From assembly GCA_046727955.1 (NCBI GenBank), contig JBKPDO010000170.1:3230-67229 (forward strand): a DNA stretch of 64,000 bases, in the 5' to 3' direction. The notes under the pieces are model-generated. The model ran no database searches, was not told the DNA's origin, and saw only the letters and a list, made by a program, of their open reading frames with translations. Both the position numbers and the translations under genes were made by a program. Source of the stretch: a bacterium (GTDB lineage: Bacteria; Actinomycetota; CALGFH01). Numbering within the stretch: the first letter of the stretch is position 1; each line of letters opens with the position of its first letter. Below, one piece after another: positions 28,249-51,740 of the stretch.

Positions 28249-28279
28249 GGCGTGGTCGGAGCGACCAGGAAGGTCAGCA
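28249..28279 (+). repeat. attL: 31-bp direct repeat
   Basis: GGCGTGGTCGGAGCGACCAGGAAGGTCAGCA, 30/31 identical to 51124-51154. Confidence 0.9.
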
Positions 28280-28453
28280 TTTTCATGGCGCGTCGTAGAA
28301 GAGCAACGCCAGTACGCTGCAAAAACGTTCGGATCTGCCCGCTGACCTGCGAAAACGACCCCTCGCCGGGCTTTCCAAGGTATAGCCTGACTCTATGTGA
28401 CTCTACGGGCGGGACGGACCCGCTGCGGACCCGACGCGGACCCGGGACAAGCG

Positions 28454-29284
28454 ATGACGGCGACCGGGCGGGCCTCCCTACTGGCTCGCAACCCCGAACC
28501 CGCCTCCACGCTGCCCTACCTGCTGCACCTGCCCCTGCCGGACGAGCCGCTGCTGCTCAAGGCCCGAGCGCGCTGGCCGCGCACCGCCAAGGTCTACTGC
28601 CACCCCGCCGACTCTTGGCCCGCCGACGTCGAGGTGCTCGAGGAGGTGCCGGTGCGCTCGTGCCTGCGCCGCGGCGTGGCGATTGACCTGGTCCTGGACG
28701 GCCCAGGGAGAACCGCTCCCAGTTCGTTTTCACCCGCCTGCCGGACCAGAGAGGGCGGGAGGCGATCTTCTGGCAGACCGCCCACACCACCAGCCAGGCC
28801 CGCCCCGGCGTCCGCGTGCCACGCCGCCGCGCCGGCGGCCACGCTGAGCTGGACATCCTGGTCGACACGCGGGAGCGCTACCCCTGGCGGTTCGCCCACC
28901 GGCACGCCCGCACCCAGAGCGCCAGGCGCTGCCCGTCGGCGATTACGCCGTCGAGCTCCATTGGGACCTGGTGGGGGTCGTGGAACGCAAGACCCTGGCA
29001 GACCTGGCCGGCAGTCTGGTCGACGGCGGCCTGGCCTATGTGCTAGCCGAGCTGGCCTGCCTGCCCCGGGCCGCGGTCGTGGTGGAGGACCGCTACTCGG
29101 GCCTGTTCAAACTCGAGCACGTCAACGGCGGGTGAGTCGCCGAGCTGGTGGCCGCCATCCAGGTCCGCTACCCAGCCGTGCCGATCGTGTTCGCCGAGTC
29201 CCGCCCGCTGGCCGAGGAGTAGACCTTCCGGTCCTCGGCGCCGCCCTGGCCTACGCCCAGGCAGCCAGCGAAGCTGGCTCCTGA
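28454..29284 (+). pseudogene. ERCC4-domain nuclease family pseudogene
   Basis: ARNPEPASTLPYLL...WPRTAKVYCH; ILVDTRERYPW; GDY...VERKTLADL spread over different frames, with internal TGA (~29133) and TAG (~29220) at probable Trp codons. Confidence 0.85.
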
Positions 29285-29424
29285 GCTTCGGGCTGACCCA
29301 GCCCCTCCACGCTTGCCGGCCGGAACGGTGTTGACAACGATTGGTCCCTTCGGCATGACCCGGCCGGGGGTCCGGAGGGCGCGTGCGCCGCTACCATCGG
29401 CAGGCCCTCACTCTGGAGGTGTTC

Positions 29425-32400
29425 GTGCCGATCGACTGGACGGCGACCGCCGGGATCGCCGGGAAGGTGCTGGGACCGCTGGGTTCGTTGACGCGCCGGC
29501 TGTTCCGCCAGGACTGGAAGTCTCGCCTGCTGCGGGAGGCCCACAAGGGGACCCGCTCGAAGGCGCTTGGCCGTCTTCGGCTGGTCAGCCGCCGGCGAGT
29601 TCGGCGGTGGCTTGCCGACCCGACAACCCGGGATCGTCTGGCGGTCCCAGGCCAGGCCGGCACGTCCGAGGAGCTGGCCGCCGGACTCCGTCGTGCGCTG
29701 GCACCGCGTCGGTGGCGCTGGTGGCCAGCGCTCCCCGCTGCCGACCGGCAGACGGCGGTCACCGCGTTGGTGCCAGCGATCACCCGTGGCTATCTGCGCG
29801 TCCAGGACGCCGGCCCCGCCGCCGACGTGGTCGACCGTCGCGCCGCCGACCGTCATGCCGAGCTGACCGGCGAGGTGCAGGCCGTGCTCGGCGTCCAGGC
29901 GCTCCCTGAACGCATCCCCCAACTGCCCCCGATCTGCAAGGTCCCGCTTGGTCGGCTTGCGCAGCAGGACCAAGCGCTGGCTGGGCGGCTTGCGCAGCTG
30001 CTCACCGATCCGTCCGTGCGGCCAGTCACCATCGCCGCCGACCTGACCGGCAGCCCACCAGACTGGCTGGGAGCAGCCCCGCCGGCCGCGTGGATGGTCG
30101 TGGCAGAGTTCGCCACAGCACACCACCATCAGCCGGCTGCAGCGGTCGGCTTCGAACGCGCCGTGGCCGCAGGTGCCAGCCCCCGGGCGGCCTGGCTGGC
30201 ACGCGCCGCGCTGGCCGCCCACGCGGCAGAAGCCCCGGCGAAGGCCCGTGCGCTGCTGGACGGCATCACCGACCACGACCACCCCCTCGTGCGGGCCACC
30301 CGTGCGGTGCTCGACAGCGACTGGGATGCGGTCCAGGCCGCCGCCCACGACGCCGACCCTGCGGACGAGAACCACTGGCTGATTGAGCTGCTCGCCGCCA
30401 ACGCGGCTGGGCTGAGCGGCCGGCTGGACGACGCAATCGACCAGCTCGAGATGATCCTGGATCGTGACGAGCAGGCCAGCGTCGCGGCGCTCGAAGCTGC
30501 GCGGCTGCGGGTGCAGCGCATCTCCGGCCACGCCAGCTCCCGCTGGGCGCATGACCTGCGACGTGCTCGGCAGCTCGCCCTGCACGCCCGCGACACCCGC
30601 CGGAACTGGCGAGGGCCAAGCGACCAGGCCGTGGCGCTCGCCTGCGAGGCCAGCGCGATCCTCAACGAGTGGCCCCGGGTGCTCCAGCTCGCCCAGGCCC
30701 CACCCGCGGGGGAGGCCCTCGACCTCGAGGCCGCTTCCCAGCGGGTGCTGCGCTGGGTCGCGGAGGCGGCGATCGTGCGCCGTGACACGCCGCTCGCGGC
30801 GGACGTCATCGGCCGCATCCACGACGAGTCGATCCAGGCGCGGCTAGCCGCCGAACTCGCCGCCGCCCGCGGTGAGCCCGCCGACCAGGTTCGCGCCGGC
30901 TACGAACGCGCCTACGAGCTGGCCGAGGACGACACCCAGCGGCTGGCTGCCCAGCAGGGCCTGGCCAGTCTTGGGGTCTGGCCGCTCCCCGGTTTCGACC
31001 AGGTCCGCGCCCGGGACGAGACCGCCGCCGACCACCTCGCCGCGCTCAGTGACCTCGCCCGCGGTGACCACGCAGCAGCCATCCAGCGGCTCCGGCGGTG
31101 GTCGCGCAGCAGCACGCCCGCGGCACGGCTGCTCGCCGAGGCGTACCGGCGCGCCGGTCGGCCCAATGACGCGGCCGAGGTGCTGCGCCGGCTGCACGAA
31201 CAAACGCACAACCCTCGCGACCTGATCGATGCCGCCTTCACCCTCGACGACGCCGGCCAGACGACCGACGCAGGGGCGCTCATCAAGGAGGCCTTGACCA
31301 CGCTCCCGCCTGATGCCGCCGACCGGCAGCTGATCCGCCGGGAGCTGATCAAGCGGGCTGCGCAGGATCAGCGATGGGCGGCCGTGGCCGATCAGGTGCA
31401 CGCACTGCGCGCCGAGGGGCTGGCCGAGCCTGCCGACCGGTGGCTGCTCATCGGCGCCATGATCAACCAGCAGCAGCTCGACGAGGCATGGCAGGAGCTG
31501 CGCGAGCTGCCCCCGCTGGAGCCGAGCGACGCCCAGCAGGCCCGAGCCTGGGTGGAGCTGCACTTCCGCCACCGGCACATCACCCCCGCCATCGTCGACC
31601 GTGCGGTGGACCTGCTCGCCCGATGGCCCGACGACGAGGCGCTCAACCACGCCGTCATGCAGCTCGTGCTGGTCGGCGGCGCGAGCCTCGAGCTGCCCGA
31701 GGCAACCGCCGCGCGTGCCCGCACGGCCGTCACCGACATCCTGGACCGGTTCCCTGGCCACGCGATCCAGCTCGACGCCACCGATCCGAACACGCTGGTC
31801 GCCAACCTACGGACCATGCTGAGCGAGCGTCACGAGCGCGCCGCCAAGGCCGTCCGGATGATCACCGAGCAGAGCCAGCCATACGGGCTGCTCGCCAATG
31901 CCGCCGGCCGGCTCTACGCCGAGATCCTCATCCTACGAGGCGCCGGCTGCCTGCCCGCCCATCCAGCCGCCCCGGACTTGGCCGCCCAAGAGGAGGCCGC
32001 CGCCCACACCGCCTTGGATGGACCGGTCGTGCTCGACACCAGCACCCTGCATCTCGCCGCGCTCGTTCCAGACCGTTGGCCAGACCTGGCCGGCGCGTTC
32101 ACCAGCGTCGCGTTTCCCCTGCCCGCCGCCGCTGACCTGCTCGCCACCCGCGACCTGCTCGCCCAGCGAACCACCGACACTCTGGGCCTCGACCCCACCA
32201 CCGGCAAGCTCCAGCTCCTGGAGGACACGCCCGAGCATGTCGCTGAGCTCGCCGCGCGGGCGGCGTGGATGACCACGCAGGCCAATGAACTCGACTGGGT
32301 CCCCTACGACCGGCTCGCCCGTCTCGCCGACCTGGATGGTGATCGAACACGGCCGTGGCTGGCCGCCGTCGACCTCGCTGCGACCCGCCAGCAGCCTCTC

Positions 32401-33066
32401 TACTGCGACGACCTTGGCCTGCGACGGCTGGCCACCTATCTCGGCGTCCCGACCTTTGGGACCGTCGCGCTGCTCGGCGCTCTCGTCGCCGCCGGCCGGC
32501 TTCCCACTGATGCTCTCAGCACGGCGATCGGTGAGCTGGCCCCCTACAGGGTCGTCGACCTTCCCGTCGACCCGGCCCGGCTCCGCGCCCTCGCCGTCAA
32601 GGAGGGCTGGGCGCCGGTTCCCGCCGCCTACCCCCTCACCCGCCCCGCCATCTGGCAGCAGCACCTTGACATCGCCCGTGACTTCTACCAGGAGGGATGC
32701 CGCCGTGCCAGCCAGCTCGGCGACGAGGCGCTCACCGGGTGGCTGCAGGCTGCCGCACTAGGGCTCACCCGCACCGTGGCGACGCCCTACCGGACAACGG
32801 TGCTTGGCAGACTGCTGACCGCCACAGTCCTGGGCGTCCACGCCCATCCCGACCGGTTCGCGGTGCTGCTCACCGGGGCCCGCCGAGCTGCTACCGAAGT
32901 TGAGGCGTCCGACCCGCTGCCCGCCACCGTCCGCGAGCTGTACACCGCGTTCGGCCAGGGGATGGCCCCGGACGCTGCCGCACGCCATATGCTGCTGCTG
33001 TGCACCGCGTTGCCTGCCGCTGACCGACAATTGGTCACCCGCGTGCTATTGCTCACCGAGGAGTAG
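29425..33066 (+). CDS. Large TPR-repeat protein with C-terminal PIN nuclease domain (probable defence/conflict effector)
   Basis: GGAGGT RBS before GTG 29425; long Ala/Leu helical repeats; PIN motifs PVVLDTSTL and LYCDDLGLRRLA...FGTVALL. Confidence 0.75.
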   Translation: MPIDWTATAGIAGKVLGPLGSLTRRLFRQDWKSRLLREAHKGTRSKALGRLRLVSRRRVRRWLADPTTRDRLAVPGQAGTSEELAAGLRRALAPRRWRWWPALPAADRQTAVTALVPAITRGYLRVQDAGPAADVVDRRAADRHAELTGEVQAVLGVQALPERIPQLPPICKVPLGRLAQQDQALAGRLAQLLTDPSVRPVTIAADLTGSPPDWLGAAPPAAWMVVAEFATAHHHQPAAAVGFERAVAAGASPRAAWLARAALAAHAAEAPAKARALLDGITDHDHPLVRATRAVLDSDWDAVQAAAHDADPADENHWLIELLAANAAGLSGRLDDAIDQLEMILDRDEQASVAALEAARLRVQRISGHASSRWAHDLRRARQLALHARDTRRNWRGPSDQAVALACEASAILNEWPRVLQLAQAPPAGEALDLEAASQRVLRWVAEAAIVRRDTPLAADVIGRIHDESIQARLAAELAAARGEPADQVRAGYERAYELAEDDTQRLAAQQGLASLGVWPLPGFDQVRARDETAADHLAALSDLARGDHAAAIQRLRRWSRSSTPAARLLAEAYRRAGRPNDAAEVLRRLHEQTHNPRDLIDAAFTLDDAGQTTDAGALIKEALTTLPPDAADRQLIRRELIKRAAQDQRWAAVADQVHALRAEGLAEPADRWLLIGAMINQQQLDEAWQELRELPPLEPSDAQQARAWVELHFRHRHITPAIVDRAVDLLARWPDDEALNHAVMQLVLVGGASLELPEATAARARTAVTDILDRFPGHAIQLDATDPNTLVANLRTMLSERHERAAKAVRMITEQSQPYGLLANAAGRLYAEILILRGAGCLPAHPAAPDLAAQEEAAAHTALDGPVVLDTSTLHLAALVPDRWPDLAGAFTSVAFPLPAAADLLATRDLLAQRTTDTLGLDPTTGKLQLLEDTPEHVAELAARAAWMTTQANELDWVPYDRLARLADLDGDRTRPWLAAVDLAATRQQPLYCDDLGLRRLATYLGVPTFGTVALLGALVAAGRLPTDALSTAIGELAPYRVVDLPVDPARLRALAVKEGWAPVPAAYPLTRPAIWQQHLDIARDFYQEGCRRASQLGDEALTGWLQAAALGLTRTVATPYRTTVLGRLLTATVLGVHAHPDRFAVLLTGARRAATEVEASDPLPATVRELYTAFGQGMAPDAAARHMLLLCTALPAADRQLVTRVLLLTEE

Positions 33067-33141
33067 GAACTTTCTCGACGGACAGCTCGCTCCGGTGACA
33101 GTGAACAGCGGACAGCTTTGAACAACCCACATTAGCGGGCG

Positions 33142-33350
33142 ATGGACAACCTCGGCGCGATCGGCGGGCCACTGCTGGCGCTCGGCCTGGTCGCCCTGGT
33201 CGGGGTGCGCAGTGCGGTGCTGCTGTCGATCATCCCTGGGCTGGGGCTGCGGCGGCAATCGTGTATGCCAACCGCCACATCCGCCGCCCGGCCGCACGGG
33301 CGCGGGAGCCGATCCGGCTGCGGGTGCGGCCGGTGCTGGCCGCCGGGCGG
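33142..33350 (+). pseudogene. MFS transporter internal fragment
   Basis: AMDNLGAIGGPLLALGLVALVGVRSAVLLSIIPGL, continuing in another frame as IVYANRHIRRP...IRLRVRPVL. Confidence 0.65.
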
Positions 33351-36255: not shown

Positions 36256-36264
36256 AAGCGAACC

Positions 36265-37008
36265 TCACGGGGTAACGGGCTTGGCCAGCTCCCAGACGCG
36301 ATCAAAGGAGGCGAGGTAATGACGGAACAGTCGGCCGCCCGGGAGCTGGCGCAGGTGTAGGACGGGAGACTGCGCCGCCGGCGCCCCGTAAGCATGGGCG
36401 TTCACCAGCATGTCGTCATCGAACCGGAAGATCGAGTTGTAGAGCGCCGTGGCGTGAAAGCGTGTCTCGACATCGGCCGCCTCAAGCGCTGACCGCAGGT
36501 AGGTCAGGCTGAGACGGATGCGCCCGGCCATGCCCTCGCCGATGCCCTCCTCCTCCCCGCGCAGGCGCACCGCGTCGGAGGCTGGATCGCCAAGCGCGAA
36601 CCGCACGCAGACCCCATCCCGGGCCTTGTCGATGAGCGTCCGGGCGAGGTCAGGATGTCCGTCCGGGAGGAACAGCCCGGCGTACACGAGCACGTCCAGG
36701 TGCTCGCTGGCGCTTTCGATGAGGGCGTGCCAGAGGGTGTCCGGGACGGCGCCCCGGTTGGGGTAGAGGGTGACGAGCTCGGCTTCGCTGGCAGACCTGA
36801 CCCGGACGCCATCCAGGACCTCGGGCCAGAGGTAGGACTCCTCAGCCCGCAGCAGCGCCGCGACAAGCTCGCGGTGTCGTCGGTGCGGGAGCCTGCCCGT
36901 TGAGATCCAGCGCTCAACGGTCTTGCGGTCGACGCTGAGCCTACCGGCCACATCGCCGATGCTCAGCTGAGCTGCTGCGATGCAGCCCCGGAGTCGTTCG
37001 TTCCCCAT
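36265..37008 (-). CDS. XRE HTH + DUF5919-like (PLD-like fold) regulator
   Basis: MGNERLR...VDRKTVERWIS.GR.PH; LDVLVYAGLFL; LYNSIFRFDDDMLVNAH; YLASFDRVWE. Confidence 0.85.
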   Translation of the reverse strand: MGNERLRGCIAAAQLSIGDVAGRLSVDRKTVERWISTGRLPHRRHRELVAALLRAEESYLWPEVLDGVRVRSASEAELVTLYPNRGAVPDTLWHALIESASEHLDVLVYAGLFLPDGHPDLARTLIDKARDGVCVRFALGDPASDAVRLRGEEEGIGEGMAGRIRLSLTYLRSALEAADVETRFHATALYNSIFRFDDDMLVNAHAYGAPAAQSPVLHLRQLPGGRLFRHYLASFDRVWELAKPVTP

Positions 37009-37264
37009 GCTCCCGCCTCGGGACGTTTGAGGACTCAGAGACGTTCTGATCGTCCCATGGGTGCAGTTTCGGCGTCCACGCTGCCTCCCCGATTCTGGAC
37101 CAACCCCCGGACATAACCGGAACAGCGGTAGCGCGCTGGTCACGCCTGTCCGATTCGAACGGCCCACGGTGCGCGCTACCGCCCGTGGGCCCTTTGCATG
37201 GAGGAGGCGTCGGCCCGTGAGCGTCGGCGAGCGCATCCAAGTCCAGCATCTTGCCTCGTGGCGC

Positions 37265-37462
37265 CTACTCGGTCGGCCGGGTTGCTTCCCGCTCGGAGAG
37301 CCATGCATCGAGTGTCGCTCGGCGATAGAGCACCTTGCGGCCGCTCTTGATGAAGGCCGGGCCAGTCTCCAGGCGGCGCCAGCGCCGCAGGGTGGGCACC
37401 GAGCAGCGAAGCAGCGCGGCCGTCTCCTGCTCGGTGAGCAGTTCGGCACTCTGCTGACCCAT
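37265..37462 (-). CDS. Excisionase/AlpA-like HTH DNA-binding protein
   Basis: LLTEQETAALLRCSVPTLRRWRRLETGPAFIKSGRKVLYRRATLDAWL. Confidence 0.85.
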   Translation of the reverse strand: MGQQSAELLTEQETAALLRCSVPTLRRWRRLETGPAFIKSGRKVLYRRATLDAWLSEREATRPTE

Positions 37463-37603
37463 ACGCAGTTCCCTCGTGATCGCGGGTTGACTTCTGTGAT
37501 CACGAATGATAGCGTACGCACGTCGGAATTGGAAGTGCCCCGGCGGCGAACAACGCGACTGGCATCGCGCGCCACCCCGGGGCCGGCACCAAGGAGTAGC
37601 CCC

Positions 37604-37906
37604 TTGGTACGGCGCCAGCCTACTGCGCCGCGCGTCCTGGCCGTCAACGGCCAGGACCCGGCACTCTACCAGCGGTTCGAGGCCATCGGCCGCCCGCTTG
37701 GTCCCGTCACTCACTGCCGCGTCAGCCTCGGCCCCGGTCAGCGCTGGGTGGACTTCGACCACCAGCCCACCGAGGCCGAGCTGCGCGCCCTGGTCGACCC
37801 CGAGCGCTCCGAGCAGGACGACTTCCAGATCGAGGAGCGCCTGACCCGCGAGCACTTCGACCCCGGCATGGACAACGGCGAGCCGGGGGGCGGTGAGGAC
37901 TGGTGA
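37604..37906 (+). CDS. Hypothetical protein, first gene of the rightward operon
   Basis: AAGGAG RBS then TTG; stop overlaps the next start (GTGA). Confidence 0.6.
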   Translation: MVRRQPTAPRVLAVNGQDPALYQRFEAIGRPLGPVTHCRVSLGPGQRWVDFDHQPTEAELRALVDPERSEQDDFQIEERLTREHFDPGMDNGEPGGGEDW

Positions 37907-38118
37907 CCGTCGCTCGCAACGGCCGCGCCCGGCCCACCAGCCAGCGCCAGCCGGCCCCGGCCGCGCCCGCTGACGACTACGCACCGATCGTCGGCGGCAT
38001 GGTTGCCTGCCGGAAATGCGCAGCGCTGTTGCTCGACACCCGGCCCGCCCGGGACCAGCACACCGCGTTCCACCAGTCCCTGCGGAAGATGTGGGACGCC
38101 CTCGGGGGCCGGTCATGA
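37903..38118 (+). CDS. Small protein with a CxxC...H..H zinc-finger-like motif
   Basis: CRKCAALL...QHTAFH; translationally coupled on both sides. Confidence 0.65.
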   Translation: MTVARNGRARPTSQRQPAPAAPADDYAPIVGGMVACRKCAALLLDTRPARDQHTAFHQSLRKMWDALGGRS

Positions 38119-38315
38119 GCCCCGAGGAGCGCCTCGACGCGCTCGAGCGCGAGAACCAGCGCCTATACGACGTCCTGGAGCGCCTCATGGTCGCCGTCGA
38201 GCGCCTGGCCGGCATCGAGCCGCCACCACAACCCACGATGCCCCGGCGGCCGTGCCGCGGCCCGCTTCCCCACCGGCGCGCGCGAGGCGGTGGCCGGGAG
38301 ATCCAGGCCCTATGA
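38115..38315 (+). CDS. Small coiled-coil hypothetical protein
   Basis: MSPEERLDALERENQRL; ATGA overlaps on both sides. Confidence 0.6.
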   Translation: MSPEERLDALERENQRLYDVLERLMVAVERLAGIEPPPQPTMPRRPCRGPLPHRRARGGGREIQAL

Positions 38316-38587
38316 CCGCCATGCTGCGCTCCCCCGTCCTCAGCACGGCCCGCTGGCGGGACCGGGCGGCCTGCGCGGCACCTGGCGTCGACCCGGAGTG
38401 GTTCTTCCCCGCTCCCGGCCAGCAGGGCAAGCACGCCAAGCGGATCTGTGCCCGCTGCCCCGTCAAGGCCGAGTGCCTGGCCGACGCGCTCGCCGTCCCG
38501 GAAGCAGACGACCACGGCGTCCGCGGCGGGCTGACCGCCCGGGAGCGCCTCCGGCTTCGCCGCGAGCCCGCGGGGCGTGCCCGGTGA
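38312..38587 (+). CDS. WhiB-family Fe-S transcriptional regulator
   Basis: WRDRAAC...DPEWFFP...AKRICARCPVKAECL...GVRGGLTARER. Confidence 0.93.
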   Translation: MTAMLRSPVLSTARWRDRAACAAPGVDPEWFFPAPGQQGKHAKRICARCPVKAECLADALAVPEADDHGVRGGLTARERLRLRREPAGRAR

Positions 38588-39237
38588 CCGCCGCCGAGCT
38601 CCTCTCCCCCGCCGCCGGGGTCAAGCCGGTGCACCGAGTCGAGTGCGCATGCGGCTGGGTGGGCTACCGCCTCAACCCCTGGGGCCGCGACTGCCCGGCC
38701 TGTGGCACCGACGGGTCCAAGCTGCGGCCGGTGTGGCTGGCCGGTTGTGCGCCCCGGCGTGGCCGCTGCTGCTACCTGGCGGAGATCTGGCCCCCCTACC
38801 AGCACGCCTCCCATTACCTCGGCTTCACCACGGACCTGCGCCGGCGCTGGCCCGAGCACCTGGCCGGCGGCTACGACCCCACCACCCACAAGAACCACGG
38901 CAACGGCTCGCGGCTGCTGGCCGCCGCGCTGCACGCCGGCTGCCAGGTCGAGCTGGTCCGCGTCTGGCACGGCCAGCAGGCCCGCGCGCTCGAGCAGCGC
39001 CTCAAGCAGCGCCGCAAGCCCAACGCCGGCTCGCTGCGCGCCGGCGCCGCCCGCAGCCTCAAGCCGCTGTGCCCGGTGTGCAGCCCGGACGGCTGGTGGC
39101 GCCGCTACCCGGACCTGCCCGACCCTCCCCCGCCGCCGCGGCCGCGCCGGTTCGTGCCTGACCCGGAGGTGTGGGACGCCGACGCCGAGTGGGACCAGAC
39201 GTTCCCGGAGCTCGCGTACGGCGGGGGTGCGCCGTGA
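38584..39237 (+). CDS. Zn-ribbon plus GIY-YIG-like endonuclease
   Basis: CACG...CPAC; CYL...HYLGFTTDLRRRWPEH...ALEQRLK; CPVC. Confidence 0.7.
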   Translation: MTAAELLSPAAGVKPVHRVECACGWVGYRLNPWGRDCPACGTDGSKLRPVWLAGCAPRRGRCCYLAEIWPPYQHASHYLGFTTDLRRRWPEHLAGGYDPTTHKNHGNGSRLLAAALHAGCQVELVRVWHGQQARALEQRLKQRRKPNAGSLRAGAARSLKPLCPVCSPDGWWRRYPDLPDPPPPPRPRRFVPDPEVWDADAEWDQTFPELAYGGGAP

Positions 39238-39842
39238 ACGGCTACCAGTGGGGGCCGCCGACCCGATGGGGGCCGCCGCCGATGGGCCGTTCCGGGCCGC
39301 CAGTCGGGGCGCTGCTGCTCGTGGCGGTCGTGGTGGTGTTCCTGTACGGCTGGAAGCTCGCCCCCGCCGCCGGTCGCGCGTGGGCGGACCTCCAGACCGG
39401 CCACGCCCCGTTCACCCTCCGGCTCCCCAAGGTCACCCTCCCCAAGCTCCCCGAGCCTCGGCCGCCCACCGCCAGCGGGGGGAGCCGCGCGGCGGTCGCC
39501 TACGCCAAGGGCCAGCTCGGCAAGCCCTACATGTGGGGCGCCAACGGCCCTGGCGCGTTCGACTGCTCGGGCCTGGCCTTCCGCGCCTGGCAGGCCGCCG
39601 GGCTCGGCTGGCCCGACATGACCGCCGCAGCGCAGTACGCCTGGCTCCGGTCGCGCGGTGCCACCATCCCCGGGCCGCCCGCCCCGAGTGATCTCGTCTT
39701 CTACGGCGACCCCATCGGGCACGTGGCGATCGTCAGCGCGCCCGGCCAGATGATCGAGGCGCCCGGCCAGGGCGAGCAGATCCACCAAGTCCCGGTCCGC
39801 AGCGGTTACCGCGCCGCCCGGCCCGGCAGGGCGGCGCGGTGA
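39234..39842 (+). CDS. NlpC/P60 (C40) cell-wall peptidase with N-terminal TM segment
   Basis: GKPYMWGANGPGAFDCSGL...DLVFY...GHVAI. Confidence 0.93.
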   Translation: MNGYQWGPPTRWGPPPMGRSGPPVGALLLVAVVVVFLYGWKLAPAAGRAWADLQTGHAPFTLRLPKVTLPKLPEPRPPTASGGSRAAVAYAKGQLGKPYMWGANGPGAFDCSGLAFRAWQAAGLGWPDMTAAAQYAWLRSRGATIPGPPAPSDLVFYGDPIGHVAIVSAPGQMIEAPGQGEQIHQVPVRSGYRAARPGRAAR

Positions 39843-40641: not shown

Positions 40642-40764
40642 CGCCCCTGGCCGCCACGCGCTGACGCGCTTCCCCGCCATCGACCAGGGGCGCGAACCCG
40701 GACCCGATCACGGACGGACGCGCCCCGGTCGCCACCCACCACCCCGCATGAGCAGGAGGTCTAC

Positions 40765-41025
40765 ATGTTCACCATCCCTACGGGCCGGCCACGCCGGCGC
40801 CGGCCCGTCCTGCGGCTGCTGGCGGTCGCCGCGATCGTCGTTGTGCTCCTGGCCGTGCTCGCCTTCGTGGCCGGCCGCGCGAGCTCGGCGCCGGCGACGC
40901 CCACCACAACCACCACGGCGGGCGCTACCTACACCCCGGCGCCGGCCGGCCCGCCCATCACCGACCCGAACGGCCAGTGGATCCCCGAGCCTGACCCGAC
41001 CTCGAGCGCGGACGGTGAGCGCTGA
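40765..41025 (+). CDS. Small membrane-anchored protein
   Basis: AGGAGG RBS; one TM segment and a Thr/Pro-rich tail. Confidence 0.7.
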   Translation: MFTIPTGRPRRRRPVLRLLAVAAIVVVLLAVLAFVAGRASSAPATPTTTTTAGATYTPAPAGPPITDPNGQWIPEPDPTSSADGER

Positions 41026-41558
41026 TGCTGACGCGCCCACAGTCGCCCTGGACGCCGTTCACGGATGCGCCCACCATCCCCCACCGCCGCCGCGCCAGGC
41101 TCGGCCTCGCCGAGCGAACCAGGTGGTTGTGGCTGGTGCCGCTCGCCAGCGGCTTCCTGGCCGTCCTCGGCTACGTCCTCGTCTGCGACCCCGGACCCGG
41201 CCTGTCCGACCGGGCCTGGCTCACCCTCGCCTTGGCCGCCGGGCTGGTGGTGCTGCTCGCCGTGCACCGCCGCGGCGGCCCGCTGCTGCGCACCGTGCGG
41301 CTGCGGCGCGTCCTGGCCGAGTACGCCCTGGTGGCCGTGCTCGCCGTGCTGCTGGCCACCAGCGGCGCCATACACCAGCCCAAGCCCAAGCCGAACCCGT
41401 CCACTCCCGCCAGGCCCGGGACGGCCGCCGCGGCGCCGGCGCGCTGCCCCGACCCGTCCCTCGCGCACGCTCCGAGCTGGCTCTCGTGCGTGTGGCATCG
41501 CGCGATGGACCCGCCCCCCTCCCCCACCCCATCCGCCACGACCAGGAGGAACCACTGA
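41025..41558 (+). CDS. Three-TM membrane protein
   Basis: Three hydrophobic segments; TGATG coupling on both sides. Confidence 0.7.
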   Translation: MLTRPQSPWTPFTDAPTIPHRRRARLGLAERTRWLWLVPLASGFLAVLGYVLVCDPGPGLSDRAWLTLALAAGLVVLLAVHRRGGPLLRTVRLRRVLAEYALVAVLAVLLATSGAIHQPKPKPNPSTPARPGTAAAAPARCPDPSLAHAPSWLSCVWHRAMDPPPSPTPSATTRRNH

Positions 41559-42379
41559 TGAACTTCTCGGAGCTCCCCACCAGCCTGCGCCGCCTCCTGG
41601 CCGTGGCGCTGCTGCTGGTCGCCGCGATCGGCGCTGGCGCGTTCACCCTGTCGTTCGTCGCGCTGCGCGAGGTCGCCGCCCAGCCCCAGGCCGGCTGGGG
41701 CCCGCTCGCCTTTCTGTTCCCACTCATCATCGACGGGCTGCTGGTCGCCGCCGAGCTGGTCCTGGTCGCCGCCTCCATGCTGGGCCGCGAGCGGCTGCTG
41801 CCGCTTGGGTTCGTGCTCGCCGCCGGCGCGGTCACCATCTGGTTCAACATCACCCGCGTCCCCGCCCCCGTGCGGCCGGTCACCGCCATTCCCCCGCTGG
41901 CCAGCATCGGCGCGACCATCCTGATCGCCTACCTGGTCAAGATCCTCGCGGTGGCGCTGGGCAGGCCGCTGACCTACGTCCCGCCCCCCCAGCAGGCCGG
42001 GTATCTGATGTCCCCGCAGACCGTCGTGAGCCGCCTTCCGGACGGCTCCTACGGCCTGCCGGGAAGTCCGGTTCCGGGCTACGGCCCGGGCCTGCCCGGC
42101 GGGTGGCCGGCGTATGGGCAGATGCCCAGCGCAAACGGACCCGGAAATCCTCAGATCGGACCCGCTGAGGTTGACGAGGCGACCAAACGGCGGGCGGTCG
42201 AAATGTACCTTTCCGGGCTGCCAGCGGAGCAGCTCGGCGTGGCGACCGGAAGCTCAGTCGTGGTGGGCGTCGCCGCTCAGGGGATCGCGCTCGACGAGCG
42301 GTACGCCCGCCGCATCCTCGACGAGTGGAAAGCCGCCCACAAGGCCGCCAACGGCGCTCGGCAGACGCGCAAACGCTGA
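41558..42379 (+). CDS. DUF2637 / SpdA-like membrane spreading protein
   Basis: GAFTLSFVALREVA...AFLFPLIIDG...TIWFN...AIPP, then a Pro/Gly linker and a C-terminal HTH-like segment (ERYARRIL). Confidence 0.75.
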   Translation: MNFSELPTSLRRLLAVALLLVAAIGAGAFTLSFVALREVAAQPQAGWGPLAFLFPLIIDGLLVAAELVLVAASMLGRERLLPLGFVLAAGAVTIWFNITRVPAPVRPVTAIPPLASIGATILIAYLVKILAVALGRPLTYVPPPQQAGYLMSPQTVVSRLPDGSYGLPGSPVPGYGPGLPGGWPAYGQMPSANGPGNPQIGPAEVDEATKRRAVEMYLSGLPAEQLGVATGSSVVVGVAAQGIALDERYARRILDEWKAAHKAANGARQTRKR

Positions 42380-44886: not shown

Positions 44887-45788
44887 ATGAAGCGCCTGAA
44901 GAACCTCACCAATAGGGTGATCGTGGCCGCCGGTGTGGTGGTCGTGCTGCTCGCGGTCGTGCTTGTGGTCCCGCGGCTGCTGTACCCGCCGCTGCCGGCG
45001 TCGCGTTTCGCCAGCGTCGCCCCAGACAAGCGCATCGAACTGGAGACCAACCGGCTCAAGCTCCAAAACGACGCCCGGACCACCCTGCTGCAGGGCTTGG
45101 CTGGCGGGATACTGCTGCTTGGCGCTTACCTGACCTGGCGCCAGCTACAGGTCAACCGCGAGGGGCAGATCACCGACCGCTACACCAAGGCCGTCGACCA
45201 GCTTGGCCATGCGGAGCTTGACGTGCGGCTTGGCGGGATCTATGCGCTGGAGCGGATCGCCCGTGACTCGCCAGCTGACCGGGCCACGATCCGGGAGGTG
45301 TTGACCGCCTTCGTCCGCGGTCATGCTCCGTGGCCGCCGAGGCTGCCTGGCCAGTACGTCGCCACGGCGCCGATCGACCAGGTGTCATCCCTGGGGGAGC
45401 GGGCCCCCGACGTGCAGGCGAGCCTAACAGTGCTTGGCCGTGGCGGCTTCGGATCGCTCGATAGGGCTGACCGACTTGATCTGAGTGACACCGATATGCG
45501 GCGCGCGAACCTCTACCTCGCCCACCTGGAAGGAGCGATCCTGATACGCGCCCACTTGGAGCGGGCGGCCCTCATCAGTGCCCACCTGGAGAAGGCGACC
45601 CTTTGGCGTGCGCACCTGGAGGGCGCCCACCTCAACGGCGCCCACCTGGAGAGGGCGCGATTGGAGGCCACGTACTGGAGGGGGCGCTGGCCGAGCGTAC
45701 CGTCTGGCCTGCTGGGTTCGATTGGCGCGCAGCCGGAGTCATTGTTGCGGGCGAGGATGCCGCAGCGAGCCCACCACAGCAGGCCTAA
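44887..45788 (+). CDS. Membrane-anchored pentapeptide-repeat protein, apparent frameshift near 45670
   Basis: GQITDRYTKAVDQLG...RLGGIYALERIA and A(H/N)LxxA repeats. The family-type tail TVWPAGFDWRAAG lies in a different frame ending at 45788. Confidence 0.85.
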
Positions 45789-45868
45789 CAGCAACCTGCC
45801 GCCTGGACAGCCTGCTCGAACATCAGCTCTCCCGCGGCCCTGCTCGCTCGGCTCGTAGGCGGCGGCGG

Positions 45869-46671: not shown

Positions 46672-47637
46672 GTGGACGTCATCGTCACGCCTTTCGAATT
46701 GGTTATTGGTGCTTTAGTTGGCCTAGCGATCTTGGCGCTCTGGCTATTCAACCGCAGTCGCGACGAGTCGCACCGGCTGCCGATCTCCCATGAACTACTG
46801 ACAGTACTTGTAAGCGCCGCCGCGATTGCGGCCGTCCTAACCTATCGCTCACGGGTCATCACTAGAGAGCCGCTTCTTTTCATCGCAACGGCGGGAACCG
46901 TGGTCACGTTCATTGCTGTTGTCACGAACCTCATCATGACTCGGCGTATGCGCCAAGAGATGCACGACGTGTCCGGAGAATTCGGGCGGCAGATGACAGG
47001 CCTCGGAAATCTCCAATTCTACCCTACGAAAGACGAGACAATGGAGGCATTGGCGCACGAAACGCATGGCGCGAAGGAGAAGCTGATTGCGACGCGATTC
47101 TCGCCCGCGGATATAAGCGTTGAAACAGATTATTGGGCAACTATTAAGCAGCGAGCATTCGATCCCTCAATTCTCTATATCCGGATCCACTGTCTCGCAC
47201 ACATGGAGAAGAGCGCCATCACTGGCGTATGCAGGCTCATTGAAGAGTTGCGTGGCGCTCAGAGGTTCCAACTGGCAATCGCAATGTTCAATAACAGTTT
47301 CGAGATCATCATTGCCGACGAGCGGGAGTGCATATTTTGCTTCAATGATCTTTCCATGACTATTCGTAATGGGTTTCGCCTGGATTCCGTTCAACCGAAT
47401 AGCGCCCGAGTGGTAGCGAACTTCGATAGTACCCTGCGCAGCATGTTGGAGGATTGTCATATTATCGTTGACTTTGGAGAGTTCGTACAGACAGCTGCTG
47501 ATGTCCGCGCCTTGCAGAGTTACCTGAAGAGAATCCATGAGGACTATCGTGGTGGGCGCTTGCCAAGGCCTATCCACACTAGCGAAATGGAAGAATACCT
47601 GCGGACGAACGTCTTCCAAGCAGTCCGAGACGGCTGA
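46672..47637 (+). CDS. AT-richer foreign gene: three N-terminal TM segments plus an alpha/beta domain (PLD-like fold suspected)
   Basis: Frequent A/T third positions; TM segments in the first ~90 aa; pattern AKEKLIATRF...FEIIIADERECIFCF. Confidence 0.75.
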   Translation: MDVIVTPFELVIGALVGLAILALWLFNRSRDESHRLPISHELLTVLVSAAAIAAVLTYRSRVITREPLLFIATAGTVVTFIAVVTNLIMTRRMRQEMHDVSGEFGRQMTGLGNLQFYPTKDETMEALAHETHGAKEKLIATRFSPADISVETDYWATIKQRAFDPSILYIRIHCLAHMEKSAITGVCRLIEELRGAQRFQLAIAMFNNSFEIIIADERECIFCFNDLSMTIRNGFRLDSVQPNSARVVANFDSTLRSMLEDCHIIVDFGEFVQTAADVRALQSYLKRIHEDYRGGRLPRPIHTSEMEEYLRTNVFQAVRDG

Positions 47638-47689
47638 TTCTAACCAGTCCTGCATTGTGGGGTGACGGGCTTGGGGTGAGGTAGGAGGA

Positions 47690-47787
47690 TCGCGGCATGA
47701 GCACGACACGACCTCGAGCACGGTCAGCGCGCCGGCGACGAGCAGGCGGGCGGCCTTGTTCTCGAGTGACTCCCGGGCGCGGGTCAC
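47690..47787 (-). pseudogene. Truncated small gene downstream of the AAA gene
   Basis: GTG overlaps the AAA stop; RESLENKAARLLVAGALTVLEV then runs into AT-richer DNA. Confidence 0.45.
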
Positions 47788-49142
47788 GGCTCGACCTCTG
47801 TCGGCTGGAAGTGGCCGCCGCAGTCGGCATGCCGGAAGCCGGTCAGGTCGGTTGTCCGCTCGACCCCGCAGCCGTCGCAGCGCCACACGGACCGCCCGAC
47901 CGGCGACTGCGCGCCAAGGTTCAACACTGATGGCGCCGTGGCGCGTATTCCGTTCGGCGATGCTTCCGGCTCGCTGACCTGCGGTTTCTCCCCACTCGAA
48001 TACGCGCCATCGGGTGCGCTGTTAGTGGCGGCGCGTATTCCCGGGCGCTTGTTCGGCAGTGACCACCAGGACGGCCCGCGCCCACGCCTGCCCGGCGCGG
48101 GCCGCCGCTCCACCTCGACCTGGAGCGACTCGCTGGCGCGCTGCACGGTCCGCCAGGCAAGCCCCCGAGCCTCGGCAAGGTCACGCAGGTCCTCCGCCGG
48201 CCGTGGTCCGCCGGCGAGCTGCTCGGCCAGGAACGTCTCGGCGCGGTCCTGCTCGGGTGAGGGCCGGTCGACCGAGTGGCCGAGCAGACCCTCTGCCGTG
48301 TGGCTGGTGGCGCCCTCCCATACCACCCGGGCGGTGTCGTAGAGGTCGTCGCCGACGATGCGGTAGGCGAGGCTTGCCGGCTTGGCGGCCAGGTTCGACT
48401 TGGAGACGGCCAGCACGCGGCGGGTGTCGGTCTCGTCGTCGGGGTCGGGCGCGACGAGCAGGCCGGCGCGCGCGGCGCCGACGATCCCGATCGAGCCGCC
48501 GCCCCTGTACAGCGGGTTCGCGCTAGGCATCTTGTTCAGGTGGCGGACCACCAGCACGGCGACGCCGGTCGACTCGGCGAGCAGCTTGAGGCGGTACAGG
48601 GCCCGCCGAACGTCCTGGTCCCGGTTGCTGTTGACCTCGGCGCCGAGGAAGGCCATCAGCGGGTCGACGACCACCAGGCCGTAGCTGGCTTCGGCGGTGA
48701 GGTAGACCTCGATACGGTCGAGGTCGGCGGGGATCTCCACGGGCCGGGGGCCGCCGTCGTCGGTGACGTGGTCGACGATGTCCACCAGGTCGAGGTTCGC
48801 GCCGGCGACTTCCAGGCGTGGGCGGATGGTGTCGGCGACGCCGTCCTCGGCCGAGAGCAGCAGCACCTTCATGGGTTCGTCGGGGAGGTGGCCGTCCGGC
48901 ATCGGCGAGGCGGTCGAGACCCGCCCGGTGAGGTCGATCGTGATCGTGGACTTGCCGAGGCTGGGGTCGCCGTCCAGCACGGTGAGCTTCCCGAAGGGGA
49001 CGCGGCCGGGCCATAGCCAGCGGACGCGCTCGGGCTTCATGTCGGCGGCGCGGATGGTGGCGAGGCCGCGGGGGTCGCCGTTCGGGACGGTCGCGCCAGC
49101 GATGCCGTGACCAGGGTCCACGAAGGGGCTGTAGCCGCTCAC
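47784..49142 (-). CDS. RecA-like AAA ATPase/replicative helicase (AAA_25/RepA-like)
   Basis: VRWLWPGRVPFGKLTVLDGDPSLGKST, LLLSAED, VVVDP, VRHLNK, GGSIG and KSNL motifs. Confidence 0.9.
   Translation of the reverse strand: MSGYSPFVDPGHGIAGATVPNGDPRGLATIRAADMKPERVRWLWPGRVPFGKLTVLDGDPSLGKSTITIDLTGRVSTASPMPDGHLPDEPMKVLLLSAEDGVADTIRPRLEVAGANLDLVDIVDHVTDDGGPRPVEIPADLDRIEVYLTAEASYGLVVVDPLMAFLGAEVNSNRDQDVRRALYRLKLLAESTGVAVLVVRHLNKMPSANPLYRGGGSIGIVGAARAGLLVAPDPDDETDTRRVLAVSKSNLAAKPASLAYRIVGDDLYDTARVVWEGATSHTAEGLLGHSVDRPSPEQDRAETFLAEQLAGGPRPAEDLRDLAEARGLAWRTVQRASESLQVEVERRPAPGRRGRGPSWWSLPNKRPGIRAATNSAPDGAYSSGEKPQVSEPEASPNGIRATAPSVLNLGAQSPVGRSVWRCDGCGVERTTDLTGFRHADCGGHFQPTEVEP
47939..48040. repeat. Iteron-like repeats inside the helicase 3' end (putative origin)
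   Basis: GGCGCGTATTC at 47940 and 48030, inverted copy GAATACGCGCC at 47998, around CTGACCTGCGGTTTC. Confidence 0.6.
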
Positions 49143-49543: not shown

Positions 49544-49741
49544 TCAGGCGGCGGGGGGTGCCTGGTCGGTGTGCTGCTCGATCCACGCCTCCACGTCAGA
49601 GAGCCGGTATCGCAGGAACCGCCGGCCCGACTTGATGGCGCGCGGACCGTATCCGCGGTAGCGCCACTGGTGAACGGTCTCGACCCGCACCCTGAACATC
49701 TCGGCCAGCTCCTCGGCCGTGAGCAGCCGCTCCATCTGCAT
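49544..49741 (-). CDS. xis: Excisionase/AlpA-like HTH protein
   Basis: LLTAEELAEMFRVRVETVHQWRYRGYGPRAIKSGRRFLRYRLSDVEAWI; divergent from the integrase. Confidence 0.88.
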   Translation of the reverse strand: MQMERLLTAEELAEMFRVRVETVHQWRYRGYGPRAIKSGRRFLRYRLSDVEAWIEQHTDQAPPAA

Positions 49742-49850
49742 CCCCTTTGCCTGCTGACTACTGCTAACGATCACTGATTAGTGGTGATCGGTAGAGTACC
49801 ATAGAGCCGCGCTTCAATGGCGACTAGTCGAGCGAGGAGGCCAGGCGAGG

Positions 49851-51107
49851 ATGGCCCATGTCGAACGTCACCACCGCAAGCCATGCGCCCGGGCCAGCTG
49901 CGTCCATGGCTTCACCAAGCACGCCAAGAGCGCCGAAGGCGCCTGCACCGTCGCCGGCTGCGCCTGCCCCCAATGGCGCGCGGCCGCAGGCGACCGCGGG
50001 ACGTGGCGGGCACGCTGGCGCGACCCGGTCGGCAGAGAGCACGCCCGAACGTTCCGGCGCAAGCTCGACGCGGACAGGTACCTCGCCGAGGTCGAGCACG
50101 CCAAGCTCAAGGGCGCCTACGTCGACCCGAAGCTCGGCAGGACCCGCTTCGGCGAGCTGGCCGAGCGTTGGCACAACACCACCGCTGGCCTCAAGCCCTC
50201 GACGCGCCACGCCTACCGGGTCCTGCTCGACCTGCACGTGTTGCCGAGCTTCCGGGACGCGCCAGTCGCCCACGTGGACCGGCTGGCGGTCAGCGAGTGG
50301 CTCGCCGCGCTGCTCGCCGGCGGGATGAGCGCAGCGCGGGCCCGTGATGCCTTCCAGGTCCTGTCGCTGGTGTTCGCCGCCGGGGTCGACGGCGGCCTGC
50401 TGGTCGCCAACCCGGCCAGTGGGGTCCGCCTCCCCAAGCTCTCCCCCACCGAGATGTGCTTTCTCGACCCGGGCGAGGTCGAGCGGCTTGCTGCAGCGAT
50501 CGACCCGCGCTACCGGGTCCTGGTGAACACGGCCGCCTACTCGGGCGCCCGCTTTGGCGAGCTGGTTGCGCTGCGTGTCGGCCGCCTCGATCTGCTCCGC
50601 GGCACCTGCGAGATCGCCGAGTCCGCCACCGAGGTCAAGGGCCGGCTCGCGTGGGGCACCACCAAGAGCTATGAGCGGCGCACGGTGCGGCTGCCGCGGT
50701 TCCTGTGCGAGGAGCTCGGCGCCCATCTCGCCGGCCAGCCTCACGAGCGCGCCGAGCTGGTGTTCGCCGCGCCAAAGGGCGGCCCGCTGCGGCACTCCGA
50801 CTTTATCAAGCGGCAGTTCCGCCCGGCAGTGACCGCGGCCGGGCTGGACCCCAAGCTGCGCTTCCATGACTTACGACACTCGTGCGCGAGCCTGCTCATC
50901 CGCGAGGGCGCAAGCGTGAAGGCGGTACAGAAGACCCTCGGCCACAAGAGCGCCATGGTCACCCTCGACCGCTACGGGCACCTGTTCCCCGATGAGCTGG
51001 AGAGCGTCGCGGACAGGCTCGACCGTGCCCGCGCGCACGCGCTGACGGACCCAGGGCGGACCCAGCAGGCTCCGCCGGTCGCCCAGCTAGCTGGAAGGGT
51101 GCGTTGA
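49851..51107 (+). CDS. int: Tyrosine recombinase/integrase
   Basis: GARFGEL, FHDLRHSCAS, LGH and TLDRYGH catalytic motifs; WRARWRDP N-terminus. Confidence 0.97.
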   Translation: MAHVERHHRKPCARASCVHGFTKHAKSAEGACTVAGCACPQWRAAAGDRGTWRARWRDPVGREHARTFRRKLDADRYLAEVEHAKLKGAYVDPKLGRTRFGELAERWHNTTAGLKPSTRHAYRVLLDLHVLPSFRDAPVAHVDRLAVSEWLAALLAGGMSAARARDAFQVLSLVFAAGVDGGLLVANPASGVRLPKLSPTEMCFLDPGEVERLAAAIDPRYRVLVNTAAYSGARFGELVALRVGRLDLLRGTCEIAESATEVKGRLAWGTTKSYERRTVRLPRFLCEELGAHLAGQPHERAELVFAAPKGGPLRHSDFIKRQFRPAVTAAGLDPKLRFHDLRHSCASLLIREGASVKAVQKTLGHKSAMVTLDRYGHLFPDELESVADRLDRARAHALTDPGRTQQAPPVAQLAGRVR

Positions 51108-51740
51108 CCTGGTGTTTTGCGTCGGCGTGGTCGGAGCGGCCAGGAAGGTCAGCAGGTCCCAGGCCGCGTGGCTGACGATCAGGGCGCTCATGGGCATGCC
51201 GGCGGCGGCGAGCGCCGACCAGTAGGCGCCAGCCACCCCGGCCGCGCCGAACAGCGTGAAATTGCCGGTGGCCACGTGCGCGCCCGCGTAGGCGACCGAG
51301 CCGGCCGCGGCCCCCGGCCAGCGGCCGAGGCGGCGGGCCAGCCGGGCGTTCACGAAGCCACGCCAGAACAGCTCCTCCGCCGGTCCGATCACCAGGACCA
51401 GCCTGGCGGCCAGCTCGGCCGGGCGGCCCAGCTCCCGCAGCCGGTAGACGCTGCCGATCTCTTCACCGCCCCTGGGGAGCAGACGGCGCACCAGCCGGTC
51501 GCCGAGCAGAAACACCCCGTACAGGCCAGCCGCCGACGCCAGCCCGGTCACCACGTCGCCGCCGCGCACGCGGGTACGGCGCAGCTCCGGCTCGCTGGCG
51601 AGCGCGAGGCTGCCGAGGCTGAGCCCGGTAGCGGTCATGCGCTGCCAGAAGACGTCGCGAGGGCCGCGGAAGGTGAGTGCGAACGCCGAGTACGCGGCGC
51701 CGAGGGCGGTTGCGAGCAGGGCGTCGCGTGGACGCCTCAC
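51087..51740 (-). CDS. CPBP family intramembrane glutamic protease (CAAX/Abi), integration target
   Basis: AEELFWRG, AYAGAH and SHAAWD motifs; the last codons come from the element. Confidence 0.9.
   Translation of the reverse strand: MRRPRDALLATALGAAYSAFALTFRGPRDVFWQRMTATGLSLGSLALASEPELRRTRVRGGDVVTGLASAAGLYGVFLLGDRLVRRLLPRGGEEIGSVYRLRELGRPAELAARLVLVIGPAEELFWRGFVNARLARRLGRWPGAAAGSVAYAGAHVATGNFTLFGAAGVAGAYWSALAAAGMPMSALIVSHAAWDLLTFLAAPTTPTQNTRSTHPSS
51124..51154 (+). repeat. attR: 31-bp direct repeat
   Basis: GGCGTGGTCGGAGCGGCCAGGAAGGTCAGCA, immediately after the integrase. Confidence 0.9.

Follow-up and report, generated by a model that had tools for sequence, protein, structure and literature searches.

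Introduction

A class of tyrosine integrases that target transfer RNA (tRNA) and transfer-messenger RNA (tmRNA) genes was reportedly described by Williams in 2002. Phage 21 and e14 insert into the 3' end of a protein gene, icd of Escherichia coli, and provide a substitute end that keeps the gene functional. In the mycobacteriophages BPs, Brujita and Charlie, which have integration-dependent immunity, the core of the attachment (att) site lies inside the open reading frame (ORF) of the phage repressor, and the resulting change of C-terminus is functionally essential. Here we describe a 22,875-bp element in a 64,000-nt stretch of actinobacterial DNA (hereafter the window; assembly GCA_046727955.1, contig JBKPDO010000170.1). 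With a probability that we put at about 0.82, this element integrated, by means of its own tyrosine integrase, at the last conserved codons (LTFLVAPTTP) of a gene on the chromosome for a CPBP intramembrane protease, giving that gene a surrogate tail in a probably neutral exchange and retaining its own excision machinery.

In a Streptomyces population, conjugative elements occupied 36 tRNA, 14 protein-coding and 1 intergenic insertion sites, and rlmN and a glycosyltransferase gene are among the protein genes in which Streptomyces integrative and conjugative elements (ICEs), including the actinomycete type (AICEs), are known (PMC9513070). The tyrosine integrases of AICEs are mostly directed at the 3' ends of tRNA genes, and NUDIX proteins are frequent in AICEs (PMC3218068). 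The insertion site of the pneumococcal prophage group PPH040 lies in SPD_RS01460, a CPBP-family intramembrane metalloprotease gene (PMC8637289). The original prediction for our locus, made from the letters of the window, had contrasted its protein-coding target with the usual tRNA genes. The type of target stands, but the implied unusualness does not, given that 14 of the 51 Streptomyces sites (PMC9513070) and the PPH040 site (PMC8637289) are of the same kind.

The direct repeats and the exchanged tail of the CPBP gene

The assembly that holds the window (G000) comprises 6,386,783 bp in 428 contigs and is 92% complete and 2.6% contaminated; the window lies on its contig C170. The features that define the ends of the element are as follows.

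28227..28248, minus strand: native 3' tail of CPBP (NGNGPA and stop), displaced from its gene and stranded at the left end (attL); in translation identical to the tail of P0003 and P0005, two homologues without an interruption
28249..28279: left (attL) copy of the 31-bp core; base 28264 is A, the host type (Val codon)
28415..28443, plus strand: three CGGACCC copies (28415, 28426 and 28437) at an exact spacing of 11 bp, candidate arm-type integrase sites
49544..49774, minus strand: Xis-like excisionase (HTH_17, 76 aa), divergent from the integrase gene; PF12728 E 6.3e-13, phrog_66 E 9.5e-12
49851..51107, plus strand: tyrosine integrase, 418 aa, apparently intact; PF00589 E 9.7e-26, phrog_1 E 1.6e-61
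51046..51063, plus strand: two CGGACCC copies (51046 and 51057) at a spacing of 11 bp inside the integrase gene 3' end, candidate arm-type sites
51087..51123, minus strand: element-encoded surrogate CPBP tail (TQNTRSTHPSS and stop), antisense to the last integrase codons; identical tail on P0009
51087..51740, minus strand: gene for the CPBP (Rce1-like) intramembrane protease as it stands after integration, 217 aa from a GTG that overlaps the upstream stop
51124..51154: right (attR) copy of the 31-bp core; base 51139 is G, the element type (Ala codon)

The 31-bp direct repeat lies at 28249-28279 and 51124-51154, exactly where it had been predicted, with the one predicted mismatch (A at 28264, G at 51139) and a distance of 22,875 bp between the copies. 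With up to three mismatches allowed, the 31-mer occurs twice in the window and not once in any of 100 shuffles, and there are likewise only two copies in the whole 6,386,783-bp assembly. Because of this genome-wide count the 31-mer is not dispersed, contrary to the possibility that it might be a common repeat, and the element thus has the flanking direct repeats, found nowhere else in the genome, of a site-specific integrative element. A tyrosine recombinase gene is situated at one end, as in other integrative elements; its stop is at 51105-51107, and the right copy of the repeat begins 16 bp beyond it, as the original prediction had stated. The prediction had also pointed to TGACCTG motifs near both ends. 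These are present, the left one at 28343-28349 rather than at 28344, but they are weak evidence because the window contains 25 copies, and we dropped TGACCTG as an end motif.

Translations at both junctions bear out the earlier claim that the target is a protein-coding gene whose reading frame is kept open. Translated from the minus strand, the attL copy gives LTFLVAPTTPNGNGPA* and stops at 28227-28229; here the repeat encodes the C-terminal codons of the CPBP protein and is followed by the proposed native tail PNGNGPA, which P0003 and P0005 also carry. The CPBP reading at the attR copy is LTFLAAPTTPTQNTRSTHPSS*. Its stop at 51087-51089 lies 21 bp inside the 3' end of the convergent integrase ORF, so that the anticipated overlap of the two gene ends is real. 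The arrangement is that of a surrogate gene end, since the core overlaps the terminal codons, in-frame codons with a stop come from the element, and the gene is left intact in its catalytic part. On integration a tail of six residues (NGNGPA) is exchanged for one of 11 (TQNTRSTHPSS).

The product of the target gene matches PF02517 (E 2.9e-11; 43.9 bits, cut-off 22.4), the match covering residues 156-242 of a 262-aa CPBP ORF and ending immediately ahead of the surrogate tail. The translation contains EELFWR, YAGAH and HAAWD, all upstream of the att core. We take these to be the CPBP catalytic motifs EExxxR, FxxxH and HxxxD/N, and the domain together with the three motifs identifies the protein as CPBP or Rce1-like. 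Among the best 120 of 1741 homologues at E<=1e-30, conservation ends with the block WDxxTFLxAPT, and the tails beyond it range from 1 to about 80 residues and share no common motif.

The original prediction held that excision would toggle the tail of the protease. The swap between alleles is real, but its functional importance is unlikely, the tail being hypervariable in the family. A functional switch, in which integration and excision alter the activity, localization or stability of the protease through its tail, would fit with a reading frame that is open in both junction states, with the equal length of a related tail on the homologue P0021, and with the origin of the integrated stop. This stop is the antisense of the only CTA codon of the integrase (codon 413 of 418); CTA is rare, accounting for 19 of the 8206 codons counted in 17 window genes, and the next antisense stop is 72 codons further on, which weakly suggests that there may have been selection for early termination. 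Selection merely against a long read-through fusion would also explain the early stop, however, and the tails of the 120 homologues, which differ in length between 1 and about 80 residues and have no motif in common, as well as the position of all three catalytic motifs upstream of the core, make a switch quite unlikely. Because the tail is hypervariable and the Pfam domain and catalytic motifs lie upstream of the core, we read the swap as real and most likely functionally neutral for the host, a by-product of a conserved coding stretch serving as an att site.

Uninterrupted target sites in relatives

The native allele ending PNGNGPA, which had been predicted from the stranded tail, exists. 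Two metagenome CPBP proteins of 212 aa, P0003 and P0005 (96% and 95% identical), end in ...LTFLVAPTTPNGNGPA, and variants of the native type of tail are found in P0004 (ending PDGNGPA) and P0006 (ending PNASAPA).

Relatives that lack the element join its two flanks. L092, a 70-kb metagenome contig with a 90% identical CPBP protein, is colinear with window 60134-51124; past the CPBP gene come about 930 bp, then window 28089-27945, then metE and its riboswitch (27912-25261), and then 24556-21230, so that about 930 bp stand in place of the window's 23 kb. The same holds for L095, L096, L102, L108 and contig C316 of the same-genus genome G002, in which the distance from the CPBP stop to the metE-side flank is 0.8-3.1 kb. 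These six are what an integrative element should leave in its relatives, an uninterrupted target with adjacent flanks, and a failure to find them would have spoken against the original prediction.

Contigs of four sequencing runs in Logan (X1-X4, X1 being the probable source run) were compared with window 24001-44000, that is, with the attL side. An X4 contig (record 27, 2074 nt) matches 27109-28276 with 29 differing letters and 1 gap over 1168 nt and continues beyond 28276 for 905 nt without a match in 24001-44000; an X3 contig (record 23, 702 nt) matches 27854-28276 and continues for 277 nt. Both contigs, from other soil runs, depart from the window inside the repeat, 3 bp short of the end of its attL copy. 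The X4 contig shows that the short arrangement of G000 also occurs without the element. Three independent lines, namely protein alleles, synteny and contigs in other runs, show that the two flanks belong together.

Two other uses of these runs were rejected. A joint 28246>40487 in X1 and further joints have sides of about 20-23 letters and were treated as noise, and the depths of X1-X4 across flank and element are contig depths, so they cannot show presence or absence.

The integrase belongs to a lineage that targets RNA genes

Relatives of the integrase were collected at 59 genome-contig loci (33-61% identical), 50 of which were scanned for tRNAs. At 28 of the 50 a tRNA or tmRNA gene lies directly after the integrase gene on the opposite strand. 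Setting aside L034, whose contig stops about 140 bp after the integrase match, all five closest scanned loci have RNA-gene neighbors: tmRNA, tRNA-Ser, tRNA-Met and, twice, tRNA-Leu. The CPBP protein found no match by tblastn at any of the 59 genome-contig loci, and a search for the C-terminal CPBP motif by regular expression in 67 loci (these 59 and eight on viral contigs) returned L172 only. The suggestion that close integrase homologues might also sit beside CPBP genes is thus upheld by one locus, the sister L172, and by none of the 59. Of seven close viral-contig loci, three have tRNA-Leu or tRNA-Ser, two end at the integrase stop, one shows nothing recognizable and the last is L172.

The L172 integrase is 65% identical to that of the window and its contig is classed as viral by IMG/VR. 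Sense-strand sequence for DVWTFLVAPTTG begins four bases past its integrase stop, and over 147 nt this flank shares 98.6% identity with L102, in which the CPBP end and the DNA that follows it are uninterrupted. At L172 5146-5295 (whole record L180) it is the displaced CPBP tail and not the gene body that adjoins the integrase gene, and neither a CPBP body nor a second att copy or far junction was found on the 13.5-kb record.

We built a maximum-likelihood tree of 35 complete integrases, leaving out rows that were incomplete or shorter than 300 aa and also L066, L071, L077 and L179 as distant or over-long. In this tree the window and L172 are sisters (support 98/97), nested in a nine-row clade (100/99) whose neighbors are tmRNA, tRNA-Leu(taa) and tRNA-Ser(tga). 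This nesting in an RNA-gene-targeting clade indicates that the CPBP target is derived within that integrase lineage. The window keeps the ancestral geometry, in which the 3' end of an intact target gene faces the 3' end of the integrase gene, its integrase being descended from a lineage that targets tRNA and tmRNA 3' ends.

The integrase N-terminus (49851-49990) has a Cys/His-rich extension, MAHVE+HHRKPC...C.HGF.KH...C.V..C.C, which is common to relatives of 418-446 aa (P0123-P0131 and others) and is missing from those of 381-392 aa; it may be a zinc-binding module.

A proposed course of integration

We propose that the att site of the free element (attP) carried a look-alike of the CPBP gene end, so that the integrated gene would retain its three catalytic motifs. 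The mismatch base is of the Val type in attL, in L092, in G002 and in 4/4 of the nearest empty alleles, and of the Ala type only in attR. If the chromosomal site (attB) had the Val base, exchange would have taken place on the gene-body side of the mismatch, and the strands were most likely exchanged within the 15 bp at 28265-28279 / 51140-51154. In gene sense this stretch is TGCTGACCTTCCTGG, and with the next two bases it holds the dyad GACC-TTCCT-GGTC. The other 16 bp (15/16 identical) would be homology already present on attP, a copy of the codons (V/A)APTTP comparable to the tRNA 3' end that tRNA-targeting elements carry.

The CGGACCC arrays near the two ends are probable arm-type sites. 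The 7-mer is not enriched in the window (29 copies, 30 expected), and its five copies in the two phased arrays are all on one strand. Each of L172-L177 (6/6) has its own, different 7-mer, in two copies at a spacing of 11 bp, at the equivalent place in the integrase gene 3' end. Because a spacing of 11 bp is out of codon phase, the 7-mer is repeated at the level of DNA. With its module of integrase, excisionase and helicase genes and these probable arm-type sites the element is probably able to excise still. It is probably unable to transfer alone because it has no recognizable DNA translocase, relaxase or virion genes. Of this whole course of events, insertion, flanks, empty alleles and phylogeny are shown; where the strands crossed, the arm sites, the ability to excise and the neutrality of the new tail are inferred.

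Other occupied and decayed sites, and the points against integration

The surrogate tail is not confined to the window. P0009, a CPBP protein from another host that is 88% identical and has a G002-like N-terminal half, carries the identical element tail TPTQNTRSTHPSS, the tail in common being PTQNTRSTHPSS. The tail of P0021 is related and of equal length, TPQRNSTSTCPSG. A search for integrase relatives in a set of 5.8 billion proteins gave one close cluster, P0123, which is 90% identical, full length and represented by 16 member sequences from four sources. P0123 ends ...QLAGRAR, and, inferring from the window's own overlap, its ending in reverse complement can encode, codon for codon, ...STCPSG*, which is the tail of P0021.

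We also considered 80 CPBP loci in metagenomes, 62 of which extend at least 500 bp past the stop. In one of the 62, L103, a piece of an integrase (residues 355-392) converges on the CPBP gene and is followed by unrelated ORFs, and we regard this as a decayed copy with yet another tail. No convincing integrase remnant was found downstream of the CPBP gene in G003, G006, L097, L098, L104 or L115. Downstream of the G003 gene there is a short similarity to the 7-mer array. In L091 (G006:C499) the CPBP gene ends in the tail SRRGTLHS, and a HicB/HicA-like pair, as judged by eye from the DNA, comes directly after it; what lies downstream of the CPBP gene differs in every relative examined.

A wider reading of these cases is that a sub-lineage of tRNA/tmRNA integrases was retargeted to the last transmembrane codons of the CPBP family, in either orientation, and that recurrent insertion, tail donation and decay (the window, P0009, P0021 and L103/P0068) are one driver of tail diversity. 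If this were true, mobile elements would be remodeling the C-terminus of a membrane protein of their hosts in the course of evolution; we advance it only tentatively and give it rather little credence.

Several observations weigh against integration as we have described it. No reliable joint of attP or attB was found in the probable source run, in a comparison that spanned 20 kb and one att site. For the 905 letters of X4 and the 277 of X3 the comparison covered the attL side, the CPBP side lying outside the compared stretch. Where the CPBP stop is followed by the flank on the metE side, L092 has a Cys-rich ORF in between, G002 has that ORF and pth, and G000 has neither; therefore only the protein alleles and the two Logan contigs speak for an exact empty site of the G000 type. 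L172 abuts the CPBP end in an orientation opposite to that of the window and all tRNA-targeting relatives, for which our model gives no explanation. Finally, from sequence alone a genome of 428 contigs could be misassembled here, although P0009 and the Logan contigs argue against this. Such an artifact would be a chimeric contig of the metagenome-assembled genome, joined through a shared 31-mer, and the number of contigs and the 2.6% contamination are what lend it any plausibility. Two independent junctions share the direct repeat, however, with the integrase placed as in its tRNA-targeting relatives, the attR-type fusion protein recurs as P0009 in another data set, and GC content is host-like over most of the element, which leaves a chimera extremely unlikely.

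The element might alternatively be a fixed, immobile island whose repeats are scars and whose integrase is a relic. The mismatch between the repeats, the failure to find translocase, relaxase or virion genes and to detect an excision junction, and the occurrence of decay at the CPBP site, with L103 retaining only integrase residues 355-392, are all in keeping with this. We nevertheless consider it unlikely, while allowing it some real chance, since the integrase is full length with an excisionase gene adjacent, phased 7-mer arrays are present at both ends, and the mismatch is accounted for by a difference between attP and attB. Moreover, the identical tail on P0009, with its 88% identical CPBP protein in another host, and the 90% identical integrase cluster point to recent spread. 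We thus continue to favor an integrated element that has retained its excision machinery.

Gene content of the element

The ORFs of the window were scanned with Pfam (31 ORFs) and PHROGs (25 ORFs) and also with PADLOC and NCBIfam. Between its two ends the element carries the following genes in addition to those already listed.

28397-29284 and 38290-39237: ORFs with no family assigned
29383..33066, plus strand: cargo, a 1227-aa TPR and PIN protein of the TPR-GreAB-C-PIN conflict-system type; PF20698 33.4 bits, cut-off 27.8
33142-34383, plus strand: 413-aa ORF without a family match, directly after the TPR and PIN gene
34605-35066, minus strand: helix-turn-helix (HTH) regulator
35162-35797, plus strand: HD-domain protein
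35785-36255, minus strand: NUDIX hydrolase
36265..38515, minus strand: two overlapping ORFs with HTH_17 (excisionase-type) DNA-binding domains; start codons ambiguous
39171..40447, plus strand: NlpC/P60 endopeptidase and SLT-like transglycosylase (cell-wall hydrolases); PF00877 E 6.2e-12, PF01464 E 5.4e-4 (weak)
40748..42379, plus strand: membrane protein with a DUF2637 domain; PF10935 E 5.7e-14
43645-44262 and 45869-46453, minus strand: two paralogous ORFs (repeat family D1) flanking the pentapeptide-repeat gene
44887..45858, plus strand: pentapeptide-repeat protein
46672..47637, plus strand: ORF without a family match, in a low-GC patch
47784..49142, minus strand: AAA_25 / DnaB-like helicase-type replication protein, 452 aa; PF13481 E 5.1e-35, PHROG primase/helicase families
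between the Xis-like and helicase-type genes: 107-aa ORF

PADLOC recognized neither the TPR and PIN protein nor the 413-aa ORF; it matched the NUDIX protein and gave a weak mad1 match, with nothing else, and NCBIfam added nothing for the ORFs without a family match. The GC content of the patch at 46000-48000 is 0.57-0.63, compared with about 0.72 elsewhere, and the patch may have been acquired more recently. The helicase-type protein shares 27-35% identity with plasmid AAA ATPases and (myco)phage helicases. It was the only protein returned when an AICE replication initiator of the RepSA, RepAM or prim-pol type was sought.

These genes bear on whether the element could be a temperate prophage or a classical AICE. 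The sister integrase L172 is on an IMG/VR viral contig, cell-wall hydrolases are found in either kind of element, and a NUDIX protein is present, as AICEs often have Pif-like NUDIX proteins (PMC3218068). The PHROGs scan, however, found no capsid, portal, terminase or tail families beyond domain cross-hits: the structural categories returned only the NlpC/P60 and NUDIX domains and a weak cross-hit between Xis and the small terminase subunit. Likewise FtsK/SpoIIIE (PF01580; the TraB type of translocase), with seven matches in G000, has none on the window's contig and none in the 31 scanned ORFs. A prophage or AICE is in our view very unlikely, and we would class the element as an integrative island, neither conjugative nor viral, whose system of integrase, excisionase and att sites is apparently intact.

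The flanking DNA

On the left the element is preceded by metE in an ordinary arrangement.

25343-25591, plus strand: cobalamin riboswitch (RF00174, 60.4 bits) upstream of metE
25630-27927: metE

ARAGORN found no tRNA or tmRNA gene in the window, and the cobalamin riboswitch was the sole Rfam match there at the gathering threshold.

Just past the metE stop is a conserved motif of 88-92 nt (27953-28040, plus strand) that resembles a structured RNA. Copies stand at the syntenic place in G001, G002, G006, G014, G020, L092, L095, L096, L102 and L108. RNAalifold on 11 sequences gave 29 pairs, nine of them with compensatory changes, and an A-U pair of the outer stem is replaced by G-C in four sequences. 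A search of 27850-28450 found no Rfam match for the motif at E<=1. In relatives it precedes the Cys-rich ORF (L092 10661-11365, L023 5493-6263), which G000 is without. It may be an undescribed cis-regulatory RNA.

On the other side, about 1.87 kb immediately upstream of the CPBP gene in L092, G002 and G003 are missing from G000. At 51737-52135 (minus strand) there is a 132-aa remnant with a weak match to the N-terminal part of luciferase-like monooxygenases, the stop of which overlaps the GTG start of the CPBP gene.

Comparison with known systems

For an uncultured soil actinobacterial lineage this locus provides a defined att site for which both empty and occupied alleles are known, resolved to a 31-bp core with a likely crossover window of 15 bp and a GACC-N5-GGTC dyad. 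It also documents, within one integrase clade, a switch of target from RNA genes to a protein gene. The switch is useful for work on the evolution of integrase specificity and for integrase prospecting, and the general view of integration is unchanged.

The nearest relatives are tyrosine integrases that target tRNA or tmRNA genes and are carried by actinobacterial prophages or integrative elements (L030, L031, L033, L040, L173, L175 and L176), which belong to the same clade at 59-61% identity. In these, as here, the 3' end of the integrase gene faces the 3' end of an intact target, attP copies the target 3' end, and a two-copy 7-mer array with 11-bp spacing lies in the integrase gene 3' end. 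They differ in using RNA genes, where the present element uses the last conserved codons of a gene for a protein, and the att sequences have no similarity. Phage 21 and e14 at icd also use the 3' end of a protein gene and an element-supplied end. At icd, however, that end is similar in protein sequence over about 50 codons, whereas here 5-6 codons are mimicked and the further tail is unrelated and of another length. As in BPs, Brujita and Charlie, integration alters a protein C-terminus through a core inside the ORF; there the protein is the phage repressor and the change is essential, while here the gene belongs to the host and the change is probably neutral.

The Streptomyces AICEs and ICEs are similar in being actinobacterial, in their tyrosine integrases, direct repeats and protein-gene sites, and in having empty and decayed copies in relatives; unlike our element, which has no TraB, they carry TraB and Rep (PMC9513070). 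PPH040 shares a CPBP-family target gene, but its host is a Firmicute, its 17-bp core is unrelated and its site is listed among possible translation interrupters (PMC8637289). A limited literature search found no description of an actinobacterial integrase with a CPBP target. Insertion at the 3' end of a protein gene with provision of a surrogate end is already well known, and the present case is a further example.

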